A DNA stretch of 42,835 bases from Anaerolineae bacterium. Its GTDB lineage: Bacteria; Chloroflexota; Anaerolineae; CG2-30-64-16. Location: NCBI GenBank assembly GCA_025454635.1, contig JALOOB010000001.1:1-42835 (forward strand), read 5' to 3'. Within the stretch, counting starts at the first letter, position 1; each line of letters starts with the position of its first letter. A program made the translations under genes and the position numbers. Shown piece after piece: positions 2,935-31,542 of this stretch. Below the pieces are notes generated by a model that saw only the letters and a program-made list of their open reading frames with translations, made no database searches and was not told where the DNA came from.

Positions 2935-5900
2935 TCAGAACACCTCGGCCGGCTGGCCAGCCTTGTCGTCGGCTTCGTCAAGCAGCCGCTCCAGCGGCTT
3001 GGCGCCGAACAACAAGAACATCGCCGGCGTGACGAAGGTATCGAGCAAGGTCGCGCTGATGAGACCGCTGAAGATCACCACCGCCACCGGATGCAGGATC
3101 TCGGTGCCTGGCGCCTCCGCATCGAAGAGCAGCGGCGAGAGCGCAAGTGCCGCCACCAGCGCCGTCATCAGCACCGGATTCAGCCGTTCCAGCGAACCGC
3201 GCACGATCATCGGCACGCCGAACCGCTCGTGCTCGAAGCGGCAGAGGTTGATGTAGTGACTGACCTTCAGGATGCCGTTGCGTACGCTGATGCCGGCGAG
3301 CGTCACAAAGCCGATGATTGCGGCGAGCGACAGCGGCTGGCCGGACAGCCATAGCCCCACCACCGCGCCGACGAGCGCAAGCGGAATGTTGGCCATGATC
3401 ATCAAGGCCAGGACCGTCGACCGGTAGCGGCTGTAGAGCACGAGGAACACCAGCGCGAGCGAGGCGAGGGACAGCAGCCCCACCAGTCGTGCCGACTCCT
3501 CCTGCGCCTCGAACTGCCCGCCCAGCGTGACGAAGTAGCCCTCGGGCAAGCGGAACTCGGCGACCACGCTGCGGATGTCGGCCACCACGTCGGAAAGCGC
3601 CCGCCCCTGTGCGTTGGCCGAGATGACGATGCGCCGCTTCCCGTCGTCGCGGCTCACCTGGTTGGGGCCGTCGCTGTCTTCGATGGTGGCCAGGCGCGAC
3701 AGCGGCACGCGCCCCGCCGGCGTCTCGATCAGCACGTTGCGCAATCCCTCCACCGAGCGCGCCTGTTCGGGCAGGCGCAGCACCAGGTCGAAGCGCCGGT
3801 TGCCCTCGATCACCTGCGCCACGCGCGCGCCGTCCACCAGGGTCTGCAGTCCGGTAAGGATGTCCGACACCGGGACCCCGTAACGCGCGGCGGCCGCGTA
3901 GTCCACGCGCACGCGGATCTGCGGCGCCAGTACCTGCTTCTCGATTTCGAGGTCGGCGATCCCGGGAATGGCGGCGAGCCGCTCACGCAGGGCGGATGCC
4001 TGGCCGCGCAGCGTGTCCAGATCCTCGCCGAAGATCTTGATCGCGATCTGCGCGCGGACGCCCGAGAGCATGTGATCGATGCGGTGGGAGATCGGCTGGC
4101 CGATGTTGATCGCCGCCGGCAGCGGCGCGAGTCGCGTGCGAATGTCGGCGTAGATCGCGTCCAGCGACCGCTCGGAACGGCTGAGCTTGAGATCGAGCTC
4201 GGATACATGCACGCCTTCGGCATGCTCGTCCAGCTCCGCACGCCCGCTGCGCCGGCCGACGTGCTCCACCTCCGGCACGCCGGCAACCAGCTGCTCGGCC
4301 TGTCGCGCCACGCGCACCGACTCGGTCAGCGTGACGCCCGGGTTCAGGCGCAGACCGACCAGCACCGAGCCCTCGTTGAACGGCGGCAGGAAGGTCTTCG
4401 AGAAGAACGGCACCGCCGCGCCCGCGGCGGCGGCCGCAAGTGCTGCAGCGGCGACCGCCAGGCGCGGCCGCGCAAGCACGCCGCCGAGCAGCCCGGCGTA
4501 GCCGCGCTTCATCGCTTCCACCCAGCGCGGCTCGCCGTGCGCCGCATCCGCGATGTTCGGCAGCAGGTAGTAGCACAGCGCGGGCGTCACGGTCACCGAT
4601 ACCAGCATGCTCGCGAGCACCGAGACGATGTAGGCCGTGCCAAGCGGGATGAAGAGCCGCCCTTCGATGCCGGGGAGCACGAATAGCGGTACGAACACGA
4701 GCACGATGATCAGCGTCGCGTACACGATCGCCGAGCGCACTTCCAACGTCGCGCGCGCGATTACCAGCAGCGGCGCGAGCCGCGTGGTGCGGCGGCCGTT
4801 CTCGCGCAACCGGCGCAGCACGTTCTCCACGCCCACCACCGCATCATCCACGAGCTCGCCCACGGCGATCGCCAGCCCGCCGAGCGTCATGGTGTTGATC
4901 GACAGCCCGAAGTACCGGAACACCAGCGCGGTGACCAGGATCGACAGCGGGATCGCGGCCAGCGAAATGAGCGTGGTGCGGAAGTTCCCGAGGAAGAGGA
5001 AGAGCACCACGGCGACCACCGCCGCCCCGAGGGCGAGCTTGCCCTGCAGGTTCCCGATGGAGGCTTCGATGAAGGACGCCTGGCGGAAGGTCACCCGCGG
5101 CGCGGCCATGCCCTCGGGGAGCGACTTCGCGAGGGTCCCGAGCGCGGCCTCGATGTCGCGGGTCAGCCGTACGGTGTCGGCGTCGGGCTGCTTCTGCACG
5201 CCCAGGATGACGGCTGGCGCGCCGCCGAAGCCGGCGTCGCCGCGCTTGATGGCCGGGGCGAAGCGCACGTCGGCAATCTGCTCGAGCAGGATCGGTTGCC
5301 CGTTACGGCTGGTGAGCGCGACGCGCCGCAGGTCCTCCAGCCGCGCGGTACGCCCAAGATTGCGGATCAGGTACTCGCGGCTGTTGAGCTCGAGGAAGCC
5401 GCCGCTCGTGTTGGCCGAGAACGCGCGCAGCGCAAGCTCCACTTGGTCCAGCGTGATGCCGAGCGCCGCCATGCGCGCAGTGTCGGGCTGCACCTGGAAC
5501 TGGCGCACCTCGCCGCCGATGGGAATCACCTGGGACACGCCCGGAATGGTGAGGAGCCGCGGCCGCAGCACCCAGTCGGCGTACTCGCGCACGCGCATCG
5601 GATCGATCTTCGCGGCGTCGATCGGGATGGCTATGAGCATGATCTCGCCCATGATCGAGGACACCGGCCCCATGCGCGGCTGGACCGCGGCGGGGATCTG
5701 CTCTCGCACGATGCCCAGGCGCTCGGCCACGAGCTGGCGTGCGCGGTAGATGTCCACTGTCCAGTCGAACGTGACGTACACGAACGAGAGGCCTGCAGAG
5801 GACACCGAGCGTACCGTCACCACGCCCGGCAGCCCGGTCATCGCGGTCTCCAGCGGAAAGGTGATGAGGGTCTCCACCTCCTCCGGCGCCATCCCACCCG

Positions 5901-6057
5901 CCTCGGTCATCAGCGTAACCGTCGGCCGGTTTAAATCGGGGAACACGTCCACGGGCGTGCGCAGTGCCGTGAGCAGCCCGTAGAGCATCAGCACCACGGC
6001 GATGGCGAGCACCAGCAGGCGATTACGCAGGCTCGCGTTGACGATCCAGTTGAACAT
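2935..6057 (-). CDS. czcA: Heavy-metal efflux RND permease (CzcA/CusA superfamily, non-canonical TM4 signature)
   Basis: 1040-aa ORF with N-terminus MFNWIVNASLRNRLLVLAIAVVL and a 12-TM RND layout. The TM4 motif is GLAIAVGELVDDAVVGVEN. Confidence 0.95.
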   Translation of the reverse strand: MFNWIVNASLRNRLLVLAIAVVLMLYGLLTALRTPVDVFPDLNRPTVTLMTEAGGMAPEEVETLITFPLETAMTGLPGVVTVRSVSSAGLSFVYVTFDWTVDIYRARQLVAERLGIVREQIPAAVQPRMGPVSSIMGEIMLIAIPIDAAKIDPMRVREYADWVLRPRLLTIPGVSQVIPIGGEVRQFQVQPDTARMAALGITLDQVELALRAFSANTSGGFLELNSREYLIRNLGRTARLEDLRRVALTSRNGQPILLEQIADVRFAPAIKRGDAGFGGAPAVILGVQKQPDADTVRLTRDIEAALGTLAKSLPEGMAAPRVTFRQASFIEASIGNLQGKLALGAAVVAVVLFLFLGNFRTTLISLAAIPLSILVTALVFRYFGLSINTMTLGGLAIAVGELVDDAVVGVENVLRRLRENGRRTTRLAPLLVIARATLEVRSAIVYATLIIVLVFVPLFVLPGIEGRLFIPLGTAYIVSVLASMLVSVTVTPALCYYLLPNIADAAHGEPRWVEAMKRGYAGLLGGVLARPRLAVAAAALAAAAAGAAVPFFSKTFLPPFNEGSVLVGLRLNPGVTLTESVRVARQAEQLVAGVPEVEHVGRRSGRAELDEHAEGVHVSELDLKLSRSERSLDAIYADIRTRLAPLPAAINIGQPISHRIDHMLSGVRAQIAIKIFGEDLDTLRGQASALRERLAAIPGIADLEIEKQVLAPQIRVRVDYAAAARYGVPVSDILTGLQTLVDGARVAQVIEGNRRFDLVLRLPEQARSVEGLRNVLIETPAGRVPLSRLATIEDSDGPNQVSRDDGKRRIVISANAQGRALSDVVADIRSVVAEFRLPEGYFVTLGGQFEAQEESARLVGLLSLASLALVFLVLYSRYRSTVLALMIMANIPLALVGAVVGLWLSGQPLSLAAIIGFVTLAGISVRNGILKVSHYINLCRFEHERFGVPMIVRGSLERLNPVLMTALVAALALSPLLFDAEAPGTEILHPVAVVIFSGLISATLLDTFVTPAMFLLFGAKPLERLLDEADDKAGQPAEVF

Positions 6058-6065
6058 GGCGGCGC

Positions 6066-7166
6066 CTACCGAACCTGGTTGACCAGCGACGCACCCTGCG
6101 TCACCACACGTGCGCCGGGTTCCAGCCCGGCGAGCACGGCCACGTTCGCACCGTCGAGCTCCGCGTAGCGCACCACGCGCGGCACGAACCGCTCGGCGCC
6201 GGTGTGTTCCCAGACGATGGTCTCGTTGGCGGGGTTGCGCACCAGGGCGGCGGCCGGCACGGCGATACCCTCGACCGTTCGGCGCGACTGCACGATCACC
6301 TTCACCGGCTGCCCTACCGCCAGCGGCGCCTCCACACCGCCGGTGGTCCGGAACTGGAGCGGCAGCGCAAGATCGCGCAGGGTGCGCGCCGCGCCGATGA
6401 ATGCGAGCGGTACCGTGCGGCCGCTGCCCAGGTCAAGCGCCGCCGCGCCGATGTCGGCCGCCAGCGCCGGATCGAAGGTCACCGCCTCGATGCGCATGCG
6501 CGCCGGATCGACGATCTCGAACAGCACGTCGCCGGCGTTGACCACCTGTCCGGCGACGGCGTTCGCGGTCGAAATGACGCCATCGGCTGAAGCGACCAGC
6601 GTCTCGTCGGCGCGCAAGGATGCGCCGACCACCGCAGCCCGCTCCTGCAGACTCTTCGCGTCGGCACGCGCAACCTCGATGTCCCTTTGCGGCACGCTGC
6701 CCTCGAGGCTCTCGAGTCGGGCGAGTCGCTTGACCGCGAGGTCGCGCTGAGCGCTAAGTTCTGCGAGCTGAGCCGCCTGGTTGCCGCGTTCGATCTGTGA
6801 GGCCGAGGGGTGGACATACGCAAGCAGCTCGCCCTTGCGCACGCGCTGACCCAGACTGGGCAGGCCTCGGGGCCCGGGCTCTATGCGACCGGCGAGCATG
6901 GGCTGGACGCGTCCGCCGGCGTTCGGATCCAGGATGACGCGGCCGTTGAGCGTGATCGAGGTCGGCAGCTCGGCACGCGCGACCAGCGTGGTGCGCACGC
7001 CGAGCTGGCGCTGGGAGGGCTTGGGCAGGAACACGCTCCCGTCAGGGAGCCGCTGCGGACCGTTGGCACTGGGCGGGGCGGCATCGTCGCCGTGATCGTG
7101 TCCGGGCCCGGCGTACGCCGTGAACGCGACGAGCGCTGTGACCAGTATCGCGAGGGGAAGCTTCAT
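6066..7166 (-). CDS. czcB: RND periplasmic adaptor (membrane fusion protein, CzcB-like)
   Basis: The track ORF (548 aa from 7712) has an Arg/Gly-rich 182-codon extension that overlaps the gene at 7163-7669. The internal ATG at 7164-7166 gives the signal peptide MKLPLAILVTALVAFTAYA, a His tag GPGHDHGDD and an HlyD-type adaptor. It has an ATGA overlap with the upstream stop. Confidence 0.9.
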   Translation of the reverse strand: MKLPLAILVTALVAFTAYAGPGHDHGDDAAPPSANGPQRLPDGSVFLPKPSQRQLGVRTTLVARAELPTSITLNGRVILDPNAGGRVQPMLAGRIEPGPRGLPSLGQRVRKGELLAYVHPSASQIERGNQAAQLAELSAQRDLAVKRLARLESLEGSVPQRDIEVARADAKSLQERAAVVGASLRADETLVASADGVISTANAVAGQVVNAGDVLFEIVDPARMRIEAVTFDPALAADIGAAALDLGSGRTVPLAFIGAARTLRDLALPLQFRTTGGVEAPLAVGQPVKVIVQSRRTVEGIAVPAAALVRNPANETIVWEHTGAERFVPRVVRYAELDGANVAVLAGLEPGARVVTQGASLVNQVR

Positions 7167-7669
7167 TTGCGTCTCCGCAGGAGGAGCGCGGTGACGCCGA
7201 TCGCGCCGAGCAGTACAAGGAAATACGGCCAGCGTGCAAGCCACGCTGTGTCGGCATGCGCCGCGCCGATCGCGCCGCGCTCGGGCACCTCGAGCGTGCC
7301 CTCCAGCAGGTCCTGCTCGCCGGCCGCGACGATGGTGAACACCAGTGCGTGGCGGCCCGGCTTGGCCAGTGCATCCGCCTTCACGCGGAAGGTCCCGTCC
7401 GGGGCGGCCGTGGCGGCGGCCTTGAGCGCCTCCCCGCTCACCGCGATCTCGGCGGCGGTGATCGGTTCGTTGTCCGCGTACCGGTCCAGGTAGAGGACGA
7501 GCTCGGCAGCTTCCAGCACTCCGACTAGTTCGAAAAGATCCGAGTGCGTGCCGAAGCGCGGTGCGGCGACCCCGTTCGAGGCCGATTCCGCGGGGCCATG
7601 GTCGTGTCCCGGGCTGGCGATGCCGGCGAATGTGATGGTGAGCAGCAGCAAGGTCAGCACGAGACGCAT
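7163..7669 (-). CDS. Secreted, C-terminally membrane-anchored protein of unknown function inserted between the OMF and MFP genes
   Basis: About 168 aa. It has the signal peptide MRLVLTLLLLTITFAGIA, a His tag SPGHDHGP, a beta-rich core, and a C-terminal TM plus basic tail (WPYFLVLLGAIGVTALLLRRRK). Its start overlaps the OMF stop (TGATG) and its stop overlaps the MFP start. Confidence 0.75.
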   Translation of the reverse strand: MRLVLTLLLLTITFAGIASPGHDHGPAESASNGVAAPRFGTHSDLFELVGVLEAAELVLYLDRYADNEPITAAEIAVSGEALKAAATAAPDGTFRVKADALAKPGRHALVFTIVAAGEQDLLEGTLEVPERGAIGAAHADTAWLARWPYFLVLLGAIGVTALLLRRRK

Positions 7670-8895
7670 CACGGCAGCACTCCGTAAGCCTGGTTGAGCC
7701 TTGCCGCGGCAAGGCCTAGATCGAGACGTGCGGCTTCGGCGGCAAGGGCCGCCTCGCGCGCGATGGCACGCACCCGCAGCACGTCCACGACGCCGCGCTC
7801 GCCCAGCCGGAAAGCGCGCTCGATGAGCTCGAGGTTCTCGCGGGCCACCTCGAGTTGCGCCGCGGCGATGGCCTGCTGCGCGCGGGCACCCTCGAGCGCG
7901 GCCTGCGCACGTTGTAGATCGTTCTGCACCTGCTTGCGTACCGCGACCGCCGCCACCTGCGCCTCCGACAGTTCCGCGCTCGCCGCCGCGATGCGCGGTG
8001 CATTACGGACTTCGGTGTCCAGCGGGATGGCGATGCCGACGCGAACGGTGTTGCGGTAGTCGCCGCCGTACACGTCGCGGTCGAAGCGCGGGACGATGCC
8101 GACCGTCGGGTTGTCGCGGCGCACGGTCTGCACATAGTCCAGCCGGATGCGCGCCGCTTCGATGGCGCGCAGACTCGCGACGACGGTCGGATTGGCGTCG
8201 AGCGTCGGCGCGTCCGCGACCGCCTCCGGCACGTCCGCCGCGAGCGCGGCGGCGCCTACGAGCGTCGCGTAGGCGCCAAGGGTCGCGCGTTCGTCGGCGG
8301 CGGCTGCGGCGACCGCCGCGCGCGCGGCAAGCAGGTCCGCCTGGGCGAGCAAGAGGTCGGTGCGGGCGAGGTCGCCGGCGCGCACGCGACGCGCAACGTC
8401 GGTCTCGAGCGCTTCGGCGGTCATCCGCCGCGACTCGGCCAGCATCCGTACGCTGCGTGCGCGATGCGCGGCCCACAGCGATTCACGCACCTCCCCGGCG
8501 ACCTGCAGGCGGCTCGAGGTCGCGCGCGCGGCCAGCGCGGTCCGGTCGGTGTTGACGATCCGCCGCTGTGCGTCGCGCTGCCCGGGAAGCCACAAAGGCA
8601 TCGCGATGCTCGGCTCCCACTCGTTCTTGCCGCGCTCGGGGCCCTGCTGCATGCCGAATGGTTCCACCCACCGCGGCAGGTCTCGGCGAAGGTCGAGTCC
8701 GACCGTCGGAGAATCGGGAAACCACGCGTCGGTGACGCGCTCGCGCGCATCGAGCTCGTCGGCGCGTGCGGCCTGCGCATCGCCTTGGCGCGTGCGCGAC
8801 CACGCCTGCTCGAAGGCCTCGCGCAGGCTTGGCGGCTGGGCGTGCGCGGGCGTGCTCAGCGCGATGCCCAGCATCAGGATCAGTATCGTCTTCAT
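7669..8895 (-). CDS. czcC: Outer-membrane efflux factor, TolC/CzcC family
   Basis: 408-aa ORF with ATG at 8893-8895 and the signal peptide MKTILILMLGIALSTPAHA. It shows the two-repeat OMF coiled-coil pattern. Confidence 0.9.
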   Translation of the reverse strand: MKTILILMLGIALSTPAHAQPPSLREAFEQAWSRTRQGDAQAARADELDARERVTDAWFPDSPTVGLDLRRDLPRWVEPFGMQQGPERGKNEWEPSIAMPLWLPGQRDAQRRIVNTDRTALAARATSSRLQVAGEVRESLWAAHRARSVRMLAESRRMTAEALETDVARRVRAGDLARTDLLLAQADLLAARAAVAAAAADERATLGAYATLVGAAALAADVPEAVADAPTLDANPTVVASLRAIEAARIRLDYVQTVRRDNPTVGIVPRFDRDVYGGDYRNTVRVGIAIPLDTEVRNAPRIAAASAELSEAQVAAVAVRKQVQNDLQRAQAALEGARAQQAIAAAQLEVARENLELIERAFRLGERGVVDVLRVRAIAREAALAAEAARLDLGLAAARLNQAYGVLP

Positions 8896-8998
8896 GCCGT
8901 TCCAGCCACACGGGACCGAACGGCCGGGGGAAAGGGGTGAGGTAGCGCGTGGCGTGCGCCGCCTCGGTCGAATCAGAAAAGGAAGAGCCCCCGGCCGG

Positions 8999-9391
8999 TC
9001 AGGCGCGGGCTAGTGGCGGGCGGAGCGGCGTGCGGATGGACGCCGAGGCGGGCTCGAGCAGCGGCGCGGCGTGGAGGCAATGCTGGCCGAGAGGTATCGG
9101 CATCATCATCCCCCCGAAAATTCCAGGGTTCAGCGCGAGGTGGCAGAATGCATGCGCGACGGCACAAATACCGCAGTCCTCATCCGGCGCGTCACCCGCC
9201 TTGCCGCACGGTTCGCCGGCATCTAGCAAATGGACGGGCTCCCCAACCGCGCTTTCGTGAGCGTGATCGTGCAGGAGCGTGGCCGCGAAACCCTGCAGGG
9301 GCAGCCAGAGAGCGAGCAGCAATGCAATCATCCGCATAATGGTCGGGGATGCTACCGGAGGCGTGCCCCGCAGGCAACCACGCGTGCTCAT
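8999..9391 (-). CDS. Small secreted Cys/His-rich protein, CzcI-like
   Basis: 130 aa from the ATG at 9391 (ATGA overlap with the upstream CDF stop), or 112/110 aa from ATGs at 9337/9331. It has a hydrophobic leader IALLLALWLPLQGFA, the motifs HDHAHE and CGICAVAHAFCH, and the C-terminus RPPLARA. It sits at the head of the OMF-MFP-RND genes, as CzcI does in czc operons. Confidence 0.7.
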   Translation of the reverse strand: MSTRGCLRGTPPVASPTIMRMIALLLALWLPLQGFAATLLHDHAHESAVGEPVHLLDAGEPCGKAGDAPDEDCGICAVAHAFCHLALNPGIFGGMMMPIPLGQHCLHAAPLLEPASASIRTPLRPPLARA

Positions 9392-10044
9392 CGCCCGTGC
9401 TGCACGACCGGATTACCGCCGGAGGACCCCCGCTCGGCGACGAGCTCTGCCCGGGCCTGCGTGATCACGCCGCGCGCGGCCGAGATCGACAAAATGGCGA
9501 ACAGCACCGCCACACCGACGTCCGGCCACAGCGTACCCGTGCCGAACACGCCGGCCGCCGCGAGGATGACGGCGAAATTGCCGATGGCATCGTTGCGCGA
9601 ACAGAGCCACACGGACCGCATGTTCGCGTCCCCGTCGCGGAAGGCATAGAGCAGCACTGCGACGCCGACGTTGACCAGGAGCGCAAGAAGGCCGATGGCC
9701 GCCATCATGGCCGGCTCCGGCGCGGCGCCCCGATAGACGTTCCATGTAGCCAGCCCCAGCACCGCGACGCCGTAGAGGCCCATGGTCCAGCCCTTCGCCA
9801 TCGCCACCCGGCTGCGCCAGACGACGCTCATCGCCAAAGCCGCCAGGCTCACCGCGTAGTTCGCGGCGTCACCGAGAAAATCGATGGCGTCGGCCAGCAG
9901 CGCCGTCGACTCCGCACGCAACGAGGCGCCCGCTTCGACGAAGAACATCGCGGCGTTGGCGACTAGCGCGATCCACAGCACGCGTCGAAATCGTGCGTCG
10001 GACGCGGCCCGGTCCCTGCAGCCCATCTCGCAGCAGTCGTCCAT
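9388..10044 (-). CDS. Short cation diffusion facilitator-like transporter lacking the C-terminal cytoplasmic domain
   Basis: 218-aa ORF with ATG at 10042-10044 and an N-terminal Cys cluster MDDCCEMGC. It has a CDF-type TM core (ALLADAIDFLGDAANY, CSRNDAIGNFAVILAA). It is divergent from a MerR-family gene. Confidence 0.85.
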   Translation of the reverse strand: MDDCCEMGCRDRAASDARFRRVLWIALVANAAMFFVEAGASLRAESTALLADAIDFLGDAANYAVSLAALAMSVVWRSRVAMAKGWTMGLYGVAVLGLATWNVYRGAAPEPAMMAAIGLLALLVNVGVAVLLYAFRDGDANMRSVWLCSRNDAIGNFAVILAAAGVFGTGTLWPDVGVAVLFAILSISAARGVITQARAELVAERGSSGGNPVVQHGR

Positions 10045-16748: not shown

Positions 16749-17174
16749 TCAAGGGGCAGCGACCGCCTCTGCTTCAGCCAGCGAGTCCACGAGATGGCAG
16801 ATCTCCCTGTCGCGCGGCGCCCGATCCGGCAATCCACGCCACAGCTCCCGCGCCCTGACCATCCGGGTGTGGATGCGCACCAATGCGTCGATCTCCTGCT
16901 CCTTCTCGACGAGGCGCGCCTCCAGCGTCTCACGGACCAGGGGACACACCGCATGTCCCGTCTCCGCCATCTCGAGCACCGACCGCACGTCGCTCAGCGT
17001 GAACCCTAGCTGCTTCGCGTGAACGATGAACCGCAAGGCACACAGATCCCGCTCGCGGAATCGCCGGTAGTCGTTGTGATCATCCCGTTCCGGTCTGAGC
17101 AGACCGATTCGGGCGTAGTAGCGCACCGTCTCCGGCGACACTCCGGCGCGACGTGCGATTTCATTGACTTTCAT
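16749..17174 (-). CDS. MerR-family transcriptional regulator
   Basis: An internal ATG at 17174 gives 141 aa. It has the HTH MKVNEIARRAGVSPETVRYYARIGLL and the dimerisation helix EARLVEKEQEIDALVRIHTRM. Confidence 0.85.
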   Translation of the reverse strand: MKVNEIARRAGVSPETVRYYARIGLLRPERDDHNDYRRFRERDLCALRFIVHAKQLGFTLSDVRSVLEMAETGHAVCPLVRETLEARLVEKEQEIDALVRIHTRMVRARELWRGLPDRAPRDREICHLVDSLAEAEAVAAP

Positions 17175-25699: not shown

Positions 25700-27250
25700 T
25701 CAGCGTGGCAGACGCACCTTAAAGACCGTGCGACCACCAGGCACGCTCTCCACGCCGATCTGACCGCCGTGCAGGTCGACGATGGACTTCACGATCGCCA
25801 GTCCAAGTCCTGCCCCCTCCGACGTCGCCCGCCGCGCCGCGTCGCCTCGGTAGAAGCGCTCGAAAACATGGGGAAGATGCTCTGGGGAGATGCCGTCGCC
25901 CGCGTTGCTGACGCTGAACGTCGCGCCTGCCCGACCATCCTCCCAAACCTTGACGTGCACCCGACCTCCGGGCGGACTGTGCCTGACAGCGTTACTGATC
26001 AGATTTCCCAGGACTCGCTGCATGAGCGCGCGGTCCGCCTCGGCGATCGCTCGACCCGTTACATCGATCACCACACGTGCCTCGTCGGCGAGCGCCTCGA
26101 AGAAGGCACCCACCTTCGCCGCCTCTTCGTGCAACGCGATCGATTCACGCCTCAGTGTGAGGCGAGCATCATCCGCGCGAGCCAGGAACAGCATGTCGTC
26201 GACCATGCGCGATAGGCGCTCCAGTTCTTCGATGCCGCCCTCGAGCGCCGCGCGATAGTCGGATGCGCTGCGGGTACGCGTCAGGGCGATCTGGGCATTC
26301 AGCAGAAGGTTGTTGACCGGAGTCCGCAATTCGTGCGCGAGATCGGACGCAAACTCGTCCATGCGCCGAAAGGCGCGCTGCAAGCGGTCGACCATCGCGT
26401 TGTACGCGATAGCATGCTCGCGCAGCTCGGGCGGCACGCTCTCTAGCGACAGCCGCGAGTCGAAGCGATCCACCGAGAGCTCCCCGAGCGCGCGACCCAC
26501 GATCGCGAGGCGCCGGAGTGCCATCCTGACCGCGGCATGGGCGAGCAGTACGCCCAGCAAGCCCGCCGCCACAAGCGTGCCAAGCAACGTCTCCCGGTAC
26601 CGCGACAACGCGACTTTCGAAGCAGTGACGTCGAGCTCCAGCAGGATTGTCAGCGGCGGTTGGCGGACATCCTGGAGGCTGGCGGCGAACAGCGCAGTGC
26701 GGATGAACCTTGGCGTGGCTTCATTCTCGTCACGGTCGAACCGTATTTCGGGTTGCGCGTTCACCGGCGCAATCCGATGGTCGGACAGGACGACCGGTGC
26801 GATCGGCGACGACGACCAGAGCAGGTCTCCGGCCGCGCCATAGACGGTCGCATACATCTCCCGGTGCCCAATCATGGGTTCGTAGAAGCTGTGCGGATCG
26901 TCCACGATCTGCTGCTCCGATCGCGTCCGCGCCGCGACGTGGCGAAGCAAGTCCACCTTGCCGAGGATCTCGCCTCGGTTGCGCTCCTCGAGCGTGCTCG
27001 CGAACGCAAAGTCGAGATACAAGCCGACGCAAGCAAGCAGCGAGACCATGACGAGCGACACCAGCATGCTGAGCTGGGTGCCGATGCTCAGCTGACCGAG
27101 ACGCGCAGCGACACGAGGCAGCCAGGGCGCAGCCGCGGGCGTCCAGCACCCTCCTTCCGCCTTGCTCGTGGACGGTGCGACGTCTGACGCAGGCACCCTC
27201 CCGCCGTCCGCGTCGCTTCCCGCGTCGGCCTGCAGCGGTCTACTCGCCAC
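25700..27250 (-). CDS. cusS: Heavy-metal sensor histidine kinase (CusS/CopS family)
   Basis: It has two TM segments flanking a periplasmic domain, a HAMP domain, the H-box [16 protein letters not shown], the N-box [13 protein letters not shown] and G-boxes ([20 protein letters not shown]). The GTG start at 27250 overlaps the regulator stop by 11 nt, so the exact start is uncertain. Confidence 0.9.
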
Positions 27251-27914
27251 GCGATTCCAGAACGTAACCCACCCCGCGAATGGTGTGGATCAAGCGGGCT
27301 GGAAACCCCTCGTCCACTTTTGCGCGGAGCCGGCGCACCGCCACGTCGACGACATTCGTATCGCTGTTGAAATTCATGTCCCAGACCTGCTCGGCAATCA
27401 GGGTGCGCGACAGGACCTCCCCCTTGCGACGCAGCAGCAGCGACAACAGAGCGAACTCCTTTGCGGTGAGATCGACCCGCTGACCCGCCCGCAGCACCCG
27501 CCGCCGCAGCAGATCGACCTCGAGGTCGGCCTCCTGCAACGTCTGCGGCTCGGCAACGCGGCCGCGCCGCAGCAACGTGCGGATGCGCGCGAGAAGCTCG
27601 GAGAACGCGAAGGGCTTGACGAGGTAATCGTCAGCACCCAGGTCCAGGCCCTTCACGCGATCCTCGACATGGTCCCGCGCCGTCAGAAACAAAACAGGCA
27701 CCTGACTCTGACGGCGAAGCTCGCTGAGCACCTTCCATCCGTCGATCCCCGGAAGCATCACGTCGAGGATGATCAGGTCATAGTCTCCGGTCTGCGCAAG
27801 ATGCAACCCGTCGGGCCCAGTCATGGCCGCGTCCACGACGAAGGCGCTCTCGGTCAGCCCCTTCACCAGGTATTCTGATGTGCGCGGATTGTCTTCGATC
27901 ACCAGTACACGCAT
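27240..27914 (-). CDS. cusR: OmpR-family copper/silver response regulator (CusR/CopR)
   Basis: An internal ATG at 27914 of track ORF 27240-28238 gives 224 aa, starting [20 protein letters not shown]. It has a winged helix [15 protein letters not shown]...IRGVGYVL. Confidence 0.92.
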
Positions 27915-27960
27915 GTGCAGCCCCCCAGGGCATATTGTGATGCACAGCGGGCAGCGCTGG

Positions 27961-27976
27961 ATGACAAGCTTGTAAT
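27961..27976. promoter_or_regulatory. Copper-box-like CusR/CopR operator candidate ATGACAAGCTTGTAAT
   Basis: This is a 6-4-6 inverted repeat in the cusRS / cusCBA divergent intergenic region. It closely resembles the E. coli CusR box core ATGACAAnnTTGTCAT. Confidence 0.55.
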
Positions 27977-28027
27977 GTTGGCCCGGATGAGCGCCGCGGA
28001 CCCGGGCAGAGTGCCGGCCTTTCCCCG

Positions 28028-28051
28028 CGCGGTTGACATAGGTCAACCGCG
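28028..28051. repeat. Perfect 10-bp inverted repeat CGCGGTTGAC-ATAG-GTCAACCGCG
   Basis: Read directly from the sequence. It contains TTGACA, lies about 80 nt upstream of the 28132 start, and is in the same divergent regulatory region as the copper box. Confidence 0.6.
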
Positions 28052-28131
28052 GGGCGGGCTGCTGCCATAAGGTGTGTCCGGCACATATGGCTACCGACTC
28101 CATTTCCCGATTGGTCTCGACCCGAGCAGGG

Positions 28132-28488
28132 ATGCGCGCATCGGCACCCTGGGTCCTGCTGCTCTGGCTTGCTATCTCGGCCGGAGCGACCCTGTTCGCA
28201 TGCTGCGACGTCGCAGGCAGCGCTGTGGCTCCCGCCATGTCAGGACACCATCACGACGAAGGGACCTCGACCAGCAGCATGCCCTGCCCGACGCTGTCGG
28301 ATCTCGCCGTCAGCGAGCCCGACCCAGTGGGCACCAACTCGAACCCGCCCGATCGGCACGCGAGGCTGGTCGACGGATGCGCGTACTCGTTCGCTGCGCG
28401 CGCGCCCGACGGCAACCGCAAAGCCACCTCCGCCCCGCCGCCATCGCCGCTCGCCGTGTATCGGGCGACCCTGCGGCTGCGCATCTAG
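28132..28488 (+). CDS. Small secreted Cys/His protein preceding cusC (tentative)
   Basis: An internal ATG at 28132 gives 118 aa. It has the leader [23 protein letters not shown] and the motifs [14 protein letters not shown] and MPCP. Confidence 0.5.
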
Positions 28489-28611
28489 ACCCGCCCTCCC
28501 GCAGCGACCGCTGGCGTATCCCCGCAGATACGCCAATCGTCGTGCCGGACCATCCGTCTCGGACCTGGTCCGTCGCGATGCCGATCGATCCTGCAATCCG
28601 GGGGCCATCGT

Positions 28612-29943
28612 ATGTCTGCTCCATGTCTTGCCGTCACCGGAACCACCAGTCCGGTACTACGGCGTTGGATACATTGGTTCGCCCTGCTCCTAGGGGGTTT
28701 GATTGTGTGTACGGGTGCGCAAGCCCAATGGGCGAGCGCAGCCCCGCCCGACTTGCAGGCGCTCGTCGAGGAAGCGGTGCGCCGCAACCCCGAAGTGCGC
28801 GCCGCGGCCGACGAACGCACCGCCGCGGACAGCAGGATCGCACCGGCGGGCTCGCTCGAAGATCCCATGCTGGAGGCAGGCGTCCTCAACCTGCCTACGG
28901 GCTCCTGGAGCTTTCGTGCGGAAGACATGACCATGAAGATGCTCGGGCTCTCGCAGCGACTCCCCTACCCCGGCAAGCGCCGCCTGCGCGCCGACCTCGC
29001 CCAGCTCGCTGCCGAGACGACAGCACAGGGGTATCGCGAGACGGTCAATCGCGTGATCCGCGACGTACGCGTCGCATACTACGAGCTGGCGCTCGTCGAC
29101 GCGTCGACCCGCATCGTGTTGAACAACCGCGATGTGCTGGAGCAGTTCATGCGCACGGCAGAAGCGCGGTACGCCGCAGGACAGGCCACCCAGTCAGATG
29201 TGCTCAAGGCTCAGACGCAGCTTGGCCGGATGCTCGACGAGCTGCTCCGCCTGGAACGTGAGCGGCCGACAACGGAAGCGGAGCTCCTTCGGTCTGCCGG
29301 CAAGGCGATGTTCACGATACCCATCCGGCCGGTGTTGCCCGAGGCCGGCGAGATACCGTGGAGTCTCGAGACACTGCTCGGTCAGGGTCTTGCGAATCGC
29401 CCGCAGCTTCGCGGGCTCGAGGCCGCAATCGCCCGAGCCGACAAGGCCGTGGAGCTTGCGCGGAAGGACTACCTCCCGGATATCGACGTGAAGCTGGCGT
29501 ACGGCCAGCGGGACCGGGCCGCCGACGGAATGCGCCGTGACGATATGGTCAGCGTGACGGTCGCCATCAATCTGCCCGTGTGGCGCGAGGACAAGCTCGA
29601 TCCTCGACTCGCCGAAGCAGTAGCGATGCGGGATCAGACGCGGCAGGTCTATCAGGCCCAGGTGAACGAGTTGCGGGCCAGACTGCGTCAGCAGGTCGCC
29701 ATTGCGGAGCAAAGCGCCAAGTCCGTACGCCTTTACGACACCGCGATCCTGCCCCAGGCGCGCCTGGCGGTGGAGGCGGCCTTCGCCGCCTATCGGGTAA
29801 ACCGGGTGGAGATCCTCAGCCTGCTGGACAGCCAGATGATCGTGTTCGGTTACGAGCTGAGCCGCGAGCAGGCCCGGGCGAGCCTGGGCAAGGCCGCAGC
29901 GGAGATTGATCTTCTGACCGGACGAAACGAGGTGCAACCATGA
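28612..29943 (+). CDS. cusC: Outer-membrane efflux factor, CusC/TolC family
   Basis: 443-aa ORF with a hydrophobic leader WIHWFALLLGGLIVCTGAQA and the OMF repeats LQALVEEAVRRNPEVRAA and LGQGLANRPQLRGLEAAIA. Its stop overlaps the cusB start (ATGA). Confidence 0.9.
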   Translation: MSAPCLAVTGTTSPVLRRWIHWFALLLGGLIVCTGAQAQWASAAPPDLQALVEEAVRRNPEVRAAADERTAADSRIAPAGSLEDPMLEAGVLNLPTGSWSFRAEDMTMKMLGLSQRLPYPGKRRLRADLAQLAAETTAQGYRETVNRVIRDVRVAYYELALVDASTRIVLNNRDVLEQFMRTAEARYAAGQATQSDVLKAQTQLGRMLDELLRLERERPTTEAELLRSAGKAMFTIPIRPVLPEAGEIPWSLETLLGQGLANRPQLRGLEAAIARADKAVELARKDYLPDIDVKLAYGQRDRAADGMRRDDMVSVTVAINLPVWREDKLDPRLAEAVAMRDQTRQVYQAQVNELRARLRQQVAIAEQSAKSVRLYDTAILPQARLAVEAAFAAYRVNRVEILSLLDSQMIVFGYELSREQARASLGKAAAEIDLLTGRNEVQP

Positions 29944-31541
29944 AAAAGCTCGTCGCCCTAGGGGGAATGGCGGGACTCCTGGCCATTGGCGTGGGAAGCG
30001 GGTACTGGCTGGGAAACAGAGCGCCGCAGCTCGCGTCGCCGCCTACCGCCGCGGCGGGTCGTATGGCGGAGCCGGAGCGCCGCGTCCTGTACTACCGCAA
30101 TCCCATGGGGCTCCCGGACACCTCTCCTGTGCCCAAGAAGGACCCCATGGGTATGGACTATGTTCCGGTCTTCGAAGGCGATGCGCCCGAAACCACGGCC
30201 CCCGGAGTTCGCATCAGCGTGGACAAGGTGCAGAAGATAGGCGTCCGGACGGAGACGGCCGCTGTCCGCGTCCTGTCCCGCACGATTCGAGCAGTGGGCG
30301 TGCTCCAGGCCAACGAACGGAGCCTGTACAGCGTATCGCCGAGACTCGAGGGCTGGATCGAGCGCCTTCACGTCAACGCCACCGGCCAGCCCGTCAGGCG
30401 CGGGCAGCCCCTCATGGAGATCTACAGCCCCGACCTGGTTGCCACGCAGGAGGAGTATCTGATCGCCTGGCGCGGCACGCAGTCGCTTCGCGACGCCGCT
30501 CCGGAAATTCGCAGGAGCATGGAAGTGCTCGCGGACAGCGCGCTGCAGCGGCTACGAAACTGGGAGATCTCGGAGGCCGAGATTCAGCAGCTGAGGCGCG
30601 AGGGTAGGCCGCGACAGACCATGGTGCTGCGCTCCCCCGCCTCCGGGGTGGTTCTGGAGAAGGCCGCCTTTCAGGGCATGCGCTTCATGCCCGGCGAAAT
30701 GCTGTATCGCATCGCCGACCTCTCGACGGTGTGGCTCATCGCCGATGTCTACGAGCAGGACCTCACGCAACTTCGCGTGGGCGCCCCCGTCAAGGTGCAC
30801 ATGACCGCCTACCCCGGAAGGGAGTTCGCCGGAACGGTTTCCTTCGTCTATCCCACGGTCGCCCAGGATACGCGGACCGCGCGTGCGCGGGTCGAGCTGG
30901 CCAATCCCGACGGCCTGTTGAAGCCTGAAATGTATGCGGAGGCACGTATCGAGTCTGCCGCAGGCGGCGGGGAAGCTCGGCTCTCGATTCCGGACTCCGC
31001 GGTGATTGACAGCGGCACGCGTCGCGTCGTGCTGGTTCAGCGCGACGAGGGCCGGTTCGAACCGCGCGAAGTCAGGCTAGGCCATCGCGGAGGCGGTCAC
31101 GTAGAGGTGCTGGAAGGGGTGGCCGAAGGCGAAAAGGTAGTCACCGGGGCCAATTTCCTCATCGATGCCGAGAGCAACCTGAAGGCGGCGCTGTCGTCGT
31201 TCGGGGCGCATTCCGGACATGGCACTCCCGGCGAGACGCCTGCTCCGAAGCCCTCCCCGCCTGCGGACACCGGGGCACCGAGGCCAGAGGCCTGGCGTAC
31301 ACGCGGCAGAGTGATCGAGGTCGAGGTCGCCAAAGCCAGTGTCGTGATCGAGCATGAAGCGGTGCCCGCCCTGAAGTGGCCCGCCATGACCATGCCTTTC
31401 GCCGTTCCGGACAGGACGCTCTTGCGCTCGCTGCGGCCGGGCCAGCGGATCGAGTTCGGCTTCAACCGGCTCGGGGACGGCGAGTACGCCCTCTCCGATG
31501 TAAAGCCCGGCGCCGCCGCCGAATCCCACAAGGGGCACTGA
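29940..31541 (+). CDS. cusB: Cu/Ag RND periplasmic adaptor CusB with a C-terminal CusF-like domain
   Basis: 533 aa. The N-terminal metal-binding region is YYRNPMGLPDTSPVPKKDPMGMDYVPV, followed by the HlyD-type core. The C-terminal roughly 80 aa read GRVIEVEVAKASVVIEHEAVPALKWPAMTMPFAV, matching the CusF signature. Confidence 0.92.
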   Translation: MKKLVALGGMAGLLAIGVGSGYWLGNRAPQLASPPTAAAGRMAEPERRVLYYRNPMGLPDTSPVPKKDPMGMDYVPVFEGDAPETTAPGVRISVDKVQKIGVRTETAAVRVLSRTIRAVGVLQANERSLYSVSPRLEGWIERLHVNATGQPVRRGQPLMEIYSPDLVATQEEYLIAWRGTQSLRDAAPEIRRSMEVLADSALQRLRNWEISEAEIQQLRREGRPRQTMVLRSPASGVVLEKAAFQGMRFMPGEMLYRIADLSTVWLIADVYEQDLTQLRVGAPVKVHMTAYPGREFAGTVSFVYPTVAQDTRTARARVELANPDGLLKPEMYAEARIESAAGGGEARLSIPDSAVIDSGTRRVVLVQRDEGRFEPREVRLGHRGGGHVEVLEGVAEGEKVVTGANFLIDAESNLKAALSSFGAHSGHGTPGETPAPKPSPPADTGAPRPEAWRTRGRVIEVEVAKASVVIEHEAVPALKWPAMTMPFAVPDRTLLRSLRPGQRIEFGFNRLGDGEYALSDVKPGAAAESHKGH

Positions 31542-31542
31542 A

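Follow-up and report, generated by a model that had tools for sequence, protein, structure and literature searches.

The 42,835-nt stretch of DNA analysed here (the window) carries several small ORFs with Cys/His motifs next to metal-handling modules, which raises the question of whether these ORFs form one family and whether their products work as secreted proteins or as regulators of the genes behind them. The original prediction counted five copies of one secreted family in these 43 kb. Instead, our analysis yields three solid copies, in the following called leaders A, B and C, and one degenerate copy:

8999..9337, minus strand: leader A (P0007), 112 aa; the maximal ORF extends to 9391
19001..19363, minus strand: leader B, 120 aa counted from the ATG, with a GTG at 19366
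34922..35305, plus strand: leader C (P0001), 127 aa
28132..28488, plus strand: P0002, 118 aa, heading cusCBA; probably a family member that has degenerated or diverged

Common to leaders A, B and C are an N-terminal leader of the form L-x-x-W-L-P-x-(Q/H), a core containing Cys and His, and a tail with a Pro-Pro pair. Leader A combines the signal-like leader MRMIALLLALWLPLQGFAA with an HDHAHE cluster, the metal motif CGICAVAHAFCH and the tail RPPLARA; leader B has the leader MRRLLARCLTWLVIAWLPVHA, the motif DCCAHLTG and the tail GEPLSHPPRA; and leader C has a leader ending LVTWLLVLWLPTQAVA, the motif HYCCAHFT and the tail YPEPQRRPPRA, each tail being followed by TGA. The shared motifs had been recognized from the start, except that the tail of leader A does not have the P-P-(x)-R-A form that was attributed to all three. 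The core tails are RPPL in leader A, HPPR in leader B and RPPR in leader C, compared with RAPP in DUF2946. A CXXC motif occurs only in leader A (CGIC) and CC in leaders B and C. The ligand sets are H-x-CC-A-H in two leaders and C-x-x-C-x-x-x-H-x-x-C-H in leader A, which carries additional conserved Cys/His residues (HDHxHE, HCLH) outside the core motif. The N-terminal regions contain one to three positive charges and a hydrophobic core of 10 residues (mean KD 2.2–2.8), together with A-x-A-type sites (AVA|V, VHA|S, GFA|A), and AF2 predicts an N-terminal helix with pLDDT >90. For leader A, the true start is most likely Met19 at 9337, since the database gene call begins there and a 65%-identical homologue has no in-frame upstream ATG. 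Among 596 six-frame segments of at least 40 aa counted over the whole window, the pattern L[LVIA]..WLP.[QH] was found in exactly the three leaders and in none of 100 shuffles, while a C-terminal PP.?RA was present in two of the three leaders and in one other segment, where 0.3 were expected.

Family membership was not apparent from direct comparison. Pairwise BLASTP among the three leaders gave no significant match (E 0.9–2.8), and hhalign between their small subfamily alignments aligned the leader part only, so that a larger profile was needed. A profile search collected 100 full-length relatives, nearly all of 105–135 aa and aligned end to end. An HMM built from 88 independent relatives, with the window's own proteins left out, gave full-length matches to exactly the three leaders among the 596 segments (E = 5e-30 for leader C, 3e-17 for leader B and 4e-12 for leader A). 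A kinship with CzcI and DUF2946 had been predicted together with the suggestion of profile searches. When these were run, the window's own proteins stayed below the cut-offs: a Pfam scan of five window ORFs gave no DUF2946 (PF11162; gathering threshold 23.7 bits) match even at E up to 10, leader A reached 7 bits (E = 8.8) against NCBIfam CzcI (NF045614; curated cut-off 100 bits) with nothing for the other window ORFs, and NCBIfam CopL (NF033807) matched none of the window's proteins. Their relatives do match, with 55/101 family members hitting CzcI (E up to 0.01; best 3e-27), 29/101 hitting CopL and 29/101 hitting DUF2946 over its full length (E up to 0.01; best 2e-9); the close relatives P0013 and P0015 score 18–20 bits across the full length of DUF2946. 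The predicted kinship thus holds through intermediate sequences, and the leaders themselves have diverged beyond what the present Pfam and NCBIfam models recognize. Taken together, the profile matches make it very likely that leaders A, B and C are divergent paralogous members of the CutF-like/CzcI/CopL/DUF2946 superfamily of small exported Cys/His proteins. A word-indexed homologue search returned only two to three close relatives for leaders A and C and none for leader B, tblastn against plasmids found no match, megablast of the island against plasmids found the RND pump gene only (73–76% identity), and we found no related solved structure. In 21 named genomes, the downstream neighbours of family members include OEP (11), CusF (2), multicopper oxidase (1) and cupredoxin (1) genes, which matches the published neighbourhood of CutF-like genes.

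The functions of these families were initially regarded as essentially unknown. This view is out of date, as CutF, CruR and CopL have been described as leader ORFs that encode metal-sensing arrest peptides. CutF of the Rhodobacter capsulatus cutFOG operon (PMC9973294, Ozturk et al., mBio 2023; bioRxiv 10.1101/2025.02.05.636593) and CruR (Bp2923), a DUF2946 protein of Bordetella pertussis (PMC9426467, Roy et al., mBio 2022), are both described as acting in cis. CzcI of Cupriavidus metallidurans, which also has CzcI2, is described as quenching CzcCBA in the periplasm (PMC10127602). Based on the analogy with CutF, we consider it reasonably probable that each of our leaders is a CutF-type leader ORF that senses metal and acts in cis. 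The W-L-P-x-Q signal sequence would target the nascent chain to SecYEG. With the ribosome at the terminal (R/H)-P-P-(R/L) codons, the Cys/His motif would lie about 40 residues behind and hence just out of the exit tunnel, exposed at the translocon or in the periplasm. Metal bound at this motif would lengthen the Pro-Pro pause, and the paused ribosome would occupy or adjoin the stretch of mRNA which, in its absence, pairs with the ribosome-binding site (RBS) of the next gene; it would also cover a C-rich, rut-like tract. The outcome would be raised translation, and possibly transcription, of a czcCBA-like pump, an OEP/multicopper-oxidase module or a 237-aa protein. We infer stalling, metal binding and cis action by analogy with the known leader ORFs, and the direction of regulation and the metal specificity are likewise proposals.

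The geometry of the family is consistent with such a mechanism. In 97 members, the distance from the last Cys to the PP has a median of 40 residues (IQR 39–41), and the PP lies two to five residues from the stop in 91 of them. The distance is 42 residues in leader A (Cys65 to Pro107) and 40 in leaders B and C, and the PP is found 4, 2 and 2 residues from the end of leaders A, B and C, respectively. This agrees with the operational definition of CutF-like proteins by Ozturk et al. (PMC9973294), which places a PP among the 15 C-terminal residues. A conserved spacing between Cys and terminal motif has been reported for DUF2946 and CutF, too. The lengths of the leaders and of the 118-aa product of 28132–28488 are also CutF-like (all <150 aa). 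The codon after the PP is a rare, A-ending one (CGA, AGA or CTA) in 7/7 genes of three subfamilies and might contribute to the arrest signal of this lineage; as a family-wide rule it was rejected, since CGC or CTC occupies this position in several other genomes.

At the RNA level, the predictions for leaders A and C and for their homologues have the 3′ end of the leader base-paired to the RBS of the following gene; for C, compensatory changes are seen as well. Across 28 loci, the mean probability that the RBS pairs with the leader end zone is 0.30 compared with 0.03 and 0.02 for control zones (p about 5e-4), a comparison in which proximity and the relatedness of loci are confounding factors. 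The partner of the RBS is in every case no more than about 20 nt away from the PP codons. RNA structure predictions are easily over-read in sequence of 67% GC. Spacers A and C are better conserved than synonymous sites or upstream non-coding DNA. Spacers of 103, 118 and 123 nt precede OEP-type or module genes. The 3′ end of each leader also has a C-minus-G excess that exceeds the background 99th percentile, which likewise fits the CutF-type reading.

Behind leader A lies a czc-like operon:

8896..8998, minus strand: spacer A, 103 nt between leader A and czcC
7669..8895, minus strand: czcC-like outer-membrane factor, the first gene presumed to be under leader A
6066–7712 and 2935–6057: MFP gene and RND pump gene, following the czcC-like gene

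In spacer A, a long-range helix is predicted. One strand comprises the post-PP codons, the stop codon and CCGGCCGGGGG; the other comprises CCCCCGGCCG and the GUGGCUGG zone just upstream of the czcC AUG. The fold of this region has z = -2.6, and the pairing probabilities are 0.75–1.0 both in the window and in the homologous locus L012. The spacer is 94% identical, whereas third positions of czcC reach 81% and the ORF 67%. This conservation could stem partly from a recombination breakpoint, which is conceivable because czcC is also 90% identical.

Leader C precedes a module with a multicopper oxidase:

35306..35423, plus strand: spacer C, 118 nt, structured, with three hairpins
35424..35753, plus strand: 109-aa secreted protein of unknown family, ending GGHHGKH, the first gene behind leader C
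about 35818–37146 and 37170–38534: OEP gene and multicopper oxidase gene, following the 109-aa gene

Here, the spacer's closing helices are predicted to join the final ~10 leader C codons to the SD-like UUCGGGAU and to the GUG at which the following gene starts (z = -2.1; 59 pairs, 3 of them compensatory, across three loci), and the spacer is 74% identical compared with 44% in the upstream non-coding region. In the single-sequence fold, the anti-RBS (the Y-P-E codons) lies ~17–24 nt behind the P-site of a PP-paused ribosome and so, according to this prediction, at or past the edge of its footprint, which speaks against the model.

The locus of leader B is organized differently:

19374..19403, minus strand: sigma-70-like promoter TTGAAT-18-TATGAT, conserved as TTGAAC-18-TATGAT in the homologous locus L008
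18602..19000, minus strand: region of 399 nt between leader B and the 237-aa gene
17888..18601, minus strand: 237-aa conserved membrane-anchored protein, presumed target of leader B

The modules at the head of which the copies were predicted to stand are borne out for the czc-like operon, cusCBA and the OEP/multicopper-oxidase genes; leader B is located downstream of the redox cluster, rather than at its head, and upstream of the 237-aa gene. The -10 hexamer ends 7 nt ahead of the leader B start, and the mRNA is therefore probably leaderless, a property that is also reported for czcI2. An own leaderless promoter for all three leaders was considered and was confirmed for leader B only. The 399-nt region contains two conserved hairpins directly 3′ of the stop, and a conserved SD and an ATG at 18866, 134 nt behind leader B, open a poorly conserved relay ORF; its TGA overlaps with the beginning of the 237-aa gene. 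The predicted fold of the region downstream of leader B was not better than shuffles (z = -0.8), which, like the 399-nt distance to the target gene, counts against the model for this leader. The 237-aa protein has no Pfam or NCBIfam match, and such a target class is not reported for CutF-like leaders. As a separate observation, this protein sits beside an NAD(P)H-to-periplasm haem ‘electron wire’.

Among the known systems, CutF resembles leader C in several respects. Both are small (<150 aa) proteins, CutF being Sec-exported and leader C putatively so, with a Cys motif ~40–45 residues before a C-terminal Pro-rich motif, and the validated tail of CutF (P109EPEGPPPRL118) is nearly superimposable on PEPQRRPPRA of leader C. 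Both are followed by a short structured spacer in which the RBS of the next gene is predicted to be hidden, and both head a copper-detoxification module with a multicopper oxidase. However, CutF has a CxxxC motif, compared with H-x-C-C-A-H or, in leader A, the longer CXXC-containing set, and three prolines instead of the two in the window leaders. The gene next to leader C encodes the 109-aa protein, with the OEP gene behind it, while in the case of CutF it is the oxidase itself. The link to CutF is indirect and runs via the DUF2946 matches of the relatives and the quoted C-terminal motif. These departures from the literal motifs of CutF and DUF2946, and the lack of matches of the window's own proteins to the curated models, weigh against the CutF-type reading. 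CopL of the Xanthomonas/Stenotrophomonas copLAB operon is likewise a cis-acting small ORF and is needed for copper induction of a downstream multicopper oxidase; in copLAB the oxidase gene follows directly, whereas two genes intervene behind leader C.

The strongest alternative, although an unlikely one in our view, is a trans action of the CzcI type, in which the mature secreted protein would bind periplasmic metal and ‘quench’ the adjacent RND pump or oxidase, or buffer metal. Both the Pro-Pro motif and the pairing in the mRNA would in that case be incidental, unless they reflect plain translational coupling. The CzcI matches of more than half of the family fit this explanation, as does the position of leader A, which lies directly upstream of czcC in a czcCBA-type operon and thus at the place of czcI, and quenching of CzcCBA by CzcI, the closest named relative of the czc-linked copy, has been reported for Zn and Co (PMC10127602). 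The reported action of CzcI as a mature periplasmic protein counts against the CutF-type reading. The extra HDHxHE and HCLH residues of leader A point in the same direction. However, AF2 predicted no globular domain for leaders A and C with alignments of 69–101 sequences (pTM 0.29–0.34): leader A is left with helices 2–26 and 56–69, the second being the short metal-motif helix, and leader C with helix 3–31 (pTM 0.34). Neither the strict 40-residue spacing between Cys and PP nor the near-terminal PP has an obvious role in a mature protein. C. metallidurans CzcI is said to be without the C-terminal proline motif found in the leaders (PMC9973294), and CutF and CruR are quickly degraded after export. 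The generic accessory role first suggested for the copies was either that of a periplasmic metal gatekeeper or that of a regulator of the adjacent system. The regulator is the better half of this suggestion; a stable gatekeeper fits less well because no fold is predicted.

A second alternative follows CruR and appears improbable. A default PP stall would shield a rut site, metal would relieve the stall, Rho would terminate and the downstream genes would be repressed. Irrespective of its mechanism, CruR has in common with the window ORFs the superfamily, the conserved spacing between Cys and terminal motif and the C-rich 3′ region. In favour of this alternative, all four ORFs end in a C-rich, G-poor tract like the mapped cruR rut region, with a C-minus-G excess of 0.18–0.29 (background 99th percentile 0.167) that is partly a consequence of the Pro/Ala/Arg codons themselves. 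The spacers are long, as described for cruR (103–134 nt; 399 nt to the 237-aa gene). However, CruR carries CXXC and RAPP and heads a copper-uptake operon (TonB-dependent transporter), where copper relieves the stall, and the known leaders of this type head uptake operons. The window ORFs have R/H-P-P-R/L tails closer to that of CutF than to RAPP, are missed by the Pfam model and stand before genes for export or detoxification (RND efflux, OEP, multicopper oxidase); metal-dependent repression of such genes would make little sense.

Both alternatives, like the preferred CutF-type reading, presuppose genuine genes. Purifying selection acts on the leader peptides: dN/dS is 0.25–0.38 across five homologue pairs (0.26 for leader A against L012, 0.33 for leader B against P0012 and 0.25–0.38 for leader C), and leader, Cys motif and tail do not vary. 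P0012 is 59% identical to leader B and was found on 20 contigs. A check on whether the copies co-occur with their downstream modules in other genomes had been suggested; gene order is kept across the homologous loci L001–L013, including the leader A–czc arrangement in L002–L007 and L012 and the order of the leader C module in L001. The codon-position GC of the ORFs is like that of known genes. Metatranscriptome contigs match leader A (9069–9217; 8893–9043) and leader C (34943–35112, inside the gene; 35238–35388) and span the 3′ end and the spacer in both cases, and for leader A also the start of czcC. That the ORFs arose as open frames by chance in GC-rich DNA, or that they are functionless decayed remnants, is extremely unlikely and effectively refuted for the three main ORFs by this selection, the 100 full-length relatives, the kept synteny, the far-from-chance motif statistics and the transcript fragments, even though a database search found no copy of the leader B protein, which is apparently not annotated, no Shine-Dalgarno sequence precedes any of the ORFs and long spurious ORFs are common in the window; 28132–28488 alone may fit this explanation.

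Returning to the CutF-type reading, a wider and more tentative proposal, which we regard as possible but rather doubtful as a whole, is that the window holds four parallel nascent-chain metal sensors with differing ligand sets, one copy being decayed. Each would add a layer gated by periplasmic metal, translational or by anti-termination, over a separate transcriptional regulator of the MerR or two-component type, and leader B would steer the 237-aa protein via the relay ORF. If true, the window would be a natural test bed for how Cys/His motifs determine metal specificity in arrest-peptide sensors and would provide the first functional context for the 237-aa protein. Post-transcriptional metal sensing by nascent peptides such as CutF and CruR is a recent discovery with few members studied, and our finding does not change the known picture of the leader mechanism. 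It shows that a substantial branch escapes the current Pfam and NCBIfam models; this branch is characterized by the vicinal-cysteine motif, the (Q/R)-R-P-P-(R/L) tail and the 40-residue spacing. Small ‘hypothetical’ genes before czcC/cusC-type or oxidase genes may accordingly be read as regulatory leaders rather than as cargo, and pump expression would not be predictable from transcriptional regulators alone. Moreover, four copies with differing ligand sets in 43 kb offer a compact system for testing metal specificity and for comparing RBS opening with Rho blocking.

Two looser relatives had also been predicted, and they fared differently. The ORF at 28132–28488 has weak support from the leave-out HMM (E = 5e-5) and from hhalign (E = 1e-4, leader only), and judged by its sequence it is probably a decayed fourth family member. 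It has a leader-like N-terminus and CC, HHH and C-A-Y-S-F motifs, and it is without the terminal RPP motif and the 40-residue spacing; a PPP at -17 to -15 lies narrowly outside the last 15 residues. A frameshift or read-through was considered for the missing tail and rejected: an in-frame T-R-P-P occurs after the TAG, probably by chance, as no stop follows nearby. The zone after the stop is predicted to pair with the GGGGG of cusC (P about 0.6). The second candidate was rejected as a family member (leave-out HMM E = 0.29; hhalign probability 0.5%) and represents another kind of gene:

17314..17760, minus strand: small ORF, conserved, located upstream of a MerR/ZntR-like gene

Its product has a TM/signal segment and the motifs H-x-H-D-G and H-L-P-C, and ends in GRLLN.

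From the sequence, leaders A (8999-9337, minus strand), B (19001-19363, minus strand) and C (34922-35305, plus strand) form a new branch, so far unrecognised, within a known kind of small exported Cys/His proteins rather than a kind of their own. They are of moderate interest because the island holds four copies, the presumed target of one belongs to no known family and the branch is missed by curated models. The three ORFs originally named are present in the sequence, two of the three on the minus strand. By gene content, the window (67% GC) contains a metal-resistance island with the following features.

Features of the metal-resistance island
7669-8895, 6066-7712 and 2935-6057, all minus strand: czcCBA-like HME-RND operon
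28612-34734: cusCBA
about 35818-38534: OEP and multicopper oxidase module
In the island: CDF transporter
In the island: short CDF gene and divergent MerR gene
In the island: reductase/multihaem cytochrome cluster
In the island: two-component system
In the island: DUF411/CopG
In the island: P-type ATPase

Two genes are shorter than their longest ORFs, 35608-37146(+) and 27240-28238(-), suggest: homologous loci place the start of the OEP gene at ~35818 (442 aa) and that of the response-regulator gene at ~27914 (224 aa). A 109-aa secreted protein (35424-35753(+), C-terminus GGHHGKH), to which no known family was assigned, lies between leader C and the OEP/multicopper oxidase genes and is kept in the related locus L001.

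Leader A most likely starts at Met19 (position 9337), giving 112 aa: this is where the gene call in the database begins, and a 65%-identical homologue has no upstream in-frame ATG. At 9388-9391(-), the short CDF gene's stop codon and the first ATG of the longest leader A ORF overlap as ATGA; this overlap is probably not used, since the homologue lacks such an ATG.

Pairwise BLASTP among the three leaders was not significant (E 0.9-2.8), and hhalign between small subfamily alignments aligned the leader segment and nothing beyond. Among 596 six-frame segments, the motif L[LVIA]..WLP.[QH] selected exactly leaders A-C (0 in 100 shuffles). A search of 1.84 billion representative proteins with a profile built from the three subfamilies gave 100 significant matches, nearly all of 105-135 aa and aligned end to end, with the consensus M..R....LL.WLPLQ..AA...C...H.H...(acidic/His linker)...H.CCHH.S...(about 35 aa)...FFPEQPQRPPRA. 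To avoid circularity, an HMM built from 88 hits, excluding the window proteins and close relatives, was run on the six-frame segments.

Leave-out HMM matches in the window
34913-35305, plus strand: leader C, full length, E = 5e-30
19001-19369, minus strand: leader B, full length, E = 3e-17
8999-9412, minus strand: leader A, full length, E = 4e-12
28042-28488, plus strand: fourth copy, match without the terminal motif, E = 5e-5
17314-17805, minus strand: noise level, E = 0.29

Hhalign agreed with the HMM on the last two ORFs. The five relatives of the original prediction therefore comprise three solid members, a degenerate or divergent fourth at 28132-28488, and 17314-17760(-), which is ruled out by its E = 0.29 and by hhalign. 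The latter is a conserved small ORF of another kind, with a homologue in locus L008; a MerR/ZntR-like gene (16749-17219) follows it immediately. Its product combines a TM/signal segment with the motifs H-x-H-D-G and H-L-P-C, terminates in GRLLN and has no match in Pfam or NCBIfam. After the TAG stop of the fourth copy, T-R-P-P occurs in frame (28486-28500(+)); because no stop follows nearby, this is probably chance and not a recent nonsense mutation.

The leaders' own proteins are undetected by Pfam and NCBIfam models. Among 101 family members, 55 matched the NCBIfam 'CzcI family' (best 3e-27), 29 the NCBIfam 'CopL family metal-binding regulatory protein' and 29 Pfam DUF2946 over its full length. 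The proposed kinship with CzcI and DUF2946 was thus correct, since the relatives match those models, and the family assignment of leaders A-C is supported through intermediate sequences. The next gene in 21 loci of named genomes, mostly Betaproteobacteria (Nitrosomonas, Burkholderiales, Sulfuricella), encoded OEP in 11, CusF in two, and a multicopper oxidase and a cupredoxin in one each.

Several observations argue that the ORFs are genes. Their codon-position GC is in line with known genes, and gene order is shared with homologues on metagenome contigs: L001 and L013 for leader C, L002-L007 and L012 for leader A, and 20 contigs for the leader B homologue P0012. In 5/5 comparisons with homologues, dN/dS was 0.25-0.38, with substitutions clustered in the central linker and the leader, Cys motif and tail invariant. 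Metatranscriptome contigs, from libraries that may contain contaminating DNA, lie inside leader C (34943-35112) and over its 3' end and spacer (35238-35388), as well as inside leader A (9069-9217) and over its 3' end, spacer and the czcC start (8893-9043). No metatranscriptome coverage was found for leader B, which seems never to have been annotated, since its protein is missing from the protein database.

The function of these families had been considered essentially unknown, which no longer holds because CutF, CruR, CopL and CzcI have been studied. The Rhodobacter capsulatus DUF2946 protein CutF is Sec-exported, and its CxxxC and C-terminal P109EPEGPPPRL118 motifs stall the ribosome in a copper-dependent manner; the stall melts a stem-loop in which the multicopper oxidase gene's ribosome-binding site is hidden (PMC9973294; bioRxiv 10.1101/2025.02.05.636593). 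In Bordetella CruR, CXXC and RAPP motifs steer Rho-dependent termination upstream of a copper-uptake receptor (PMC9426467). CopL exerts its effect on copA in cis. Ozturk et al. described 5,334 'CutF-like' proteins in 29 clusters, with OEP genes as the commonest downstream neighbour.

The tails of leaders C (PEPQRRPPRA), B (GEPLSHPPRA) and A (RTPLRPPLARA) resemble PEPEGPPPRL of CutF. The distance from the last Cys to the Pro-Pro pair (PP) has a median of 40 residues (IQR 39-41; 97 family members) across hypervariable sequence, and PP lies 2-5 residues before the stop in 91 of these. Leaders B and C have exactly 40 and 2 residues, respectively; in leader A, the aligned Cys65 lies 42 residues from PP. 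AF2 models (101- and 69-sequence alignments) contained a signal helix alone, plus a short helix over CGICAVAHAFCH in leader A (pTM 0.29-0.34), and no relative of the leaders was found in the PDB. The codon after PP is CGA, AGA or CTA (9.1%, 1.4% and 3.2% of their respective codon families) in 7/7 genes of the three subfamilies; in homologues, CTA is kept or changed to AGA despite a dS of 0.4-1.0. Such codons are not universal in other genomes.

Rare A-ending codons after PP
9007-9015, minus strand: CTA
19007-19015, minus strand: CGA
35291-35299, plus strand: CGA

At the mRNA level, the post-PP codons, stop and following CCGGCCGGGGG of leader A and its homologue are predicted to pair with the segment that immediately precedes the czcC AUG (P 0.75-1.0; z = -2.6), and spacer identity between the loci is 94% (ORFs 67%, czcC third positions 81%). 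For leader C, a predicted three-hairpin spacer is conserved in three loci, with compensatory changes at three pairs; in its closing helices, the last ten codons would pair with the SD-like UUCGGGAU and the next gene's GUG. This spacer is 74% identical, versus 44% in upstream non-coding DNA. Across 28 loci, predicted pairing of the next gene's ribosome-binding site with the leader's end zone had a mean probability of 0.30 versus 0.03 and 0.02 in equal-sized upstream zones (p about 5e-4, subject to proximity bias and relatedness of loci); the partner lies either on the PP codons or right next to them on one side or the other. Moreover, C-minus-G excess at the 3' ends of all four ORFs (leaders A-C and the fourth copy) is 0.18-0.29 and exceeds the 99th percentile (0.167) of 1,501 windows of coding background; these tracts resemble the cruR rut region.

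C-rich, G-poor tracts resembling Rho-utilisation sites
9000-9080, minus strand
19001-19030, minus strand
35230-35310, plus strand
28380-28490, plus strand

We consider a CutF-type, cis-acting, metal-sensing arrest-peptide leader the probable mechanism; shielding of the rut-like tract might be combined with such arrest. Unlike CutF, CruR and CopL, CzcI is reported to work as a mature protein that quenches CzcCBA in the periplasm (PMC10127602). A role in trans of the CzcI type is the leading alternative, above all for the czc-linked leader A, but appears unlikely.

For leader B, a CutF-type arrest leader would act on a presumed target 399 nt away, a conserved 237-aa protein (17888-18601(-)) with an N-terminal membrane anchor, found behind the leader B homologue on all 20 contigs and assigned to no known family. 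The region downstream of leader B folds no better than shuffles. It contains an Arg-rich ORF (18594-18866(-)), poorly conserved in sequence and with a conserved SD (GGAGG) and ATG. This ORF is 90 codons long in the window but 64 in L008, the two versions differing by an in-frame 78-nt indel, and its TGA overlaps the start codon (ATG) of the 237-aa gene. It might serve as a translational relay or have arisen by chance. A sigma-70 promoter (TTGAAT-18-TATGAT, 19374-19403(-)), kept in L008, is recognisable for leader B alone. Because its -10 ends just 7 nt before the GTG/ATG, this placement implies a leaderless mRNA, as likewise reported for czcI2.
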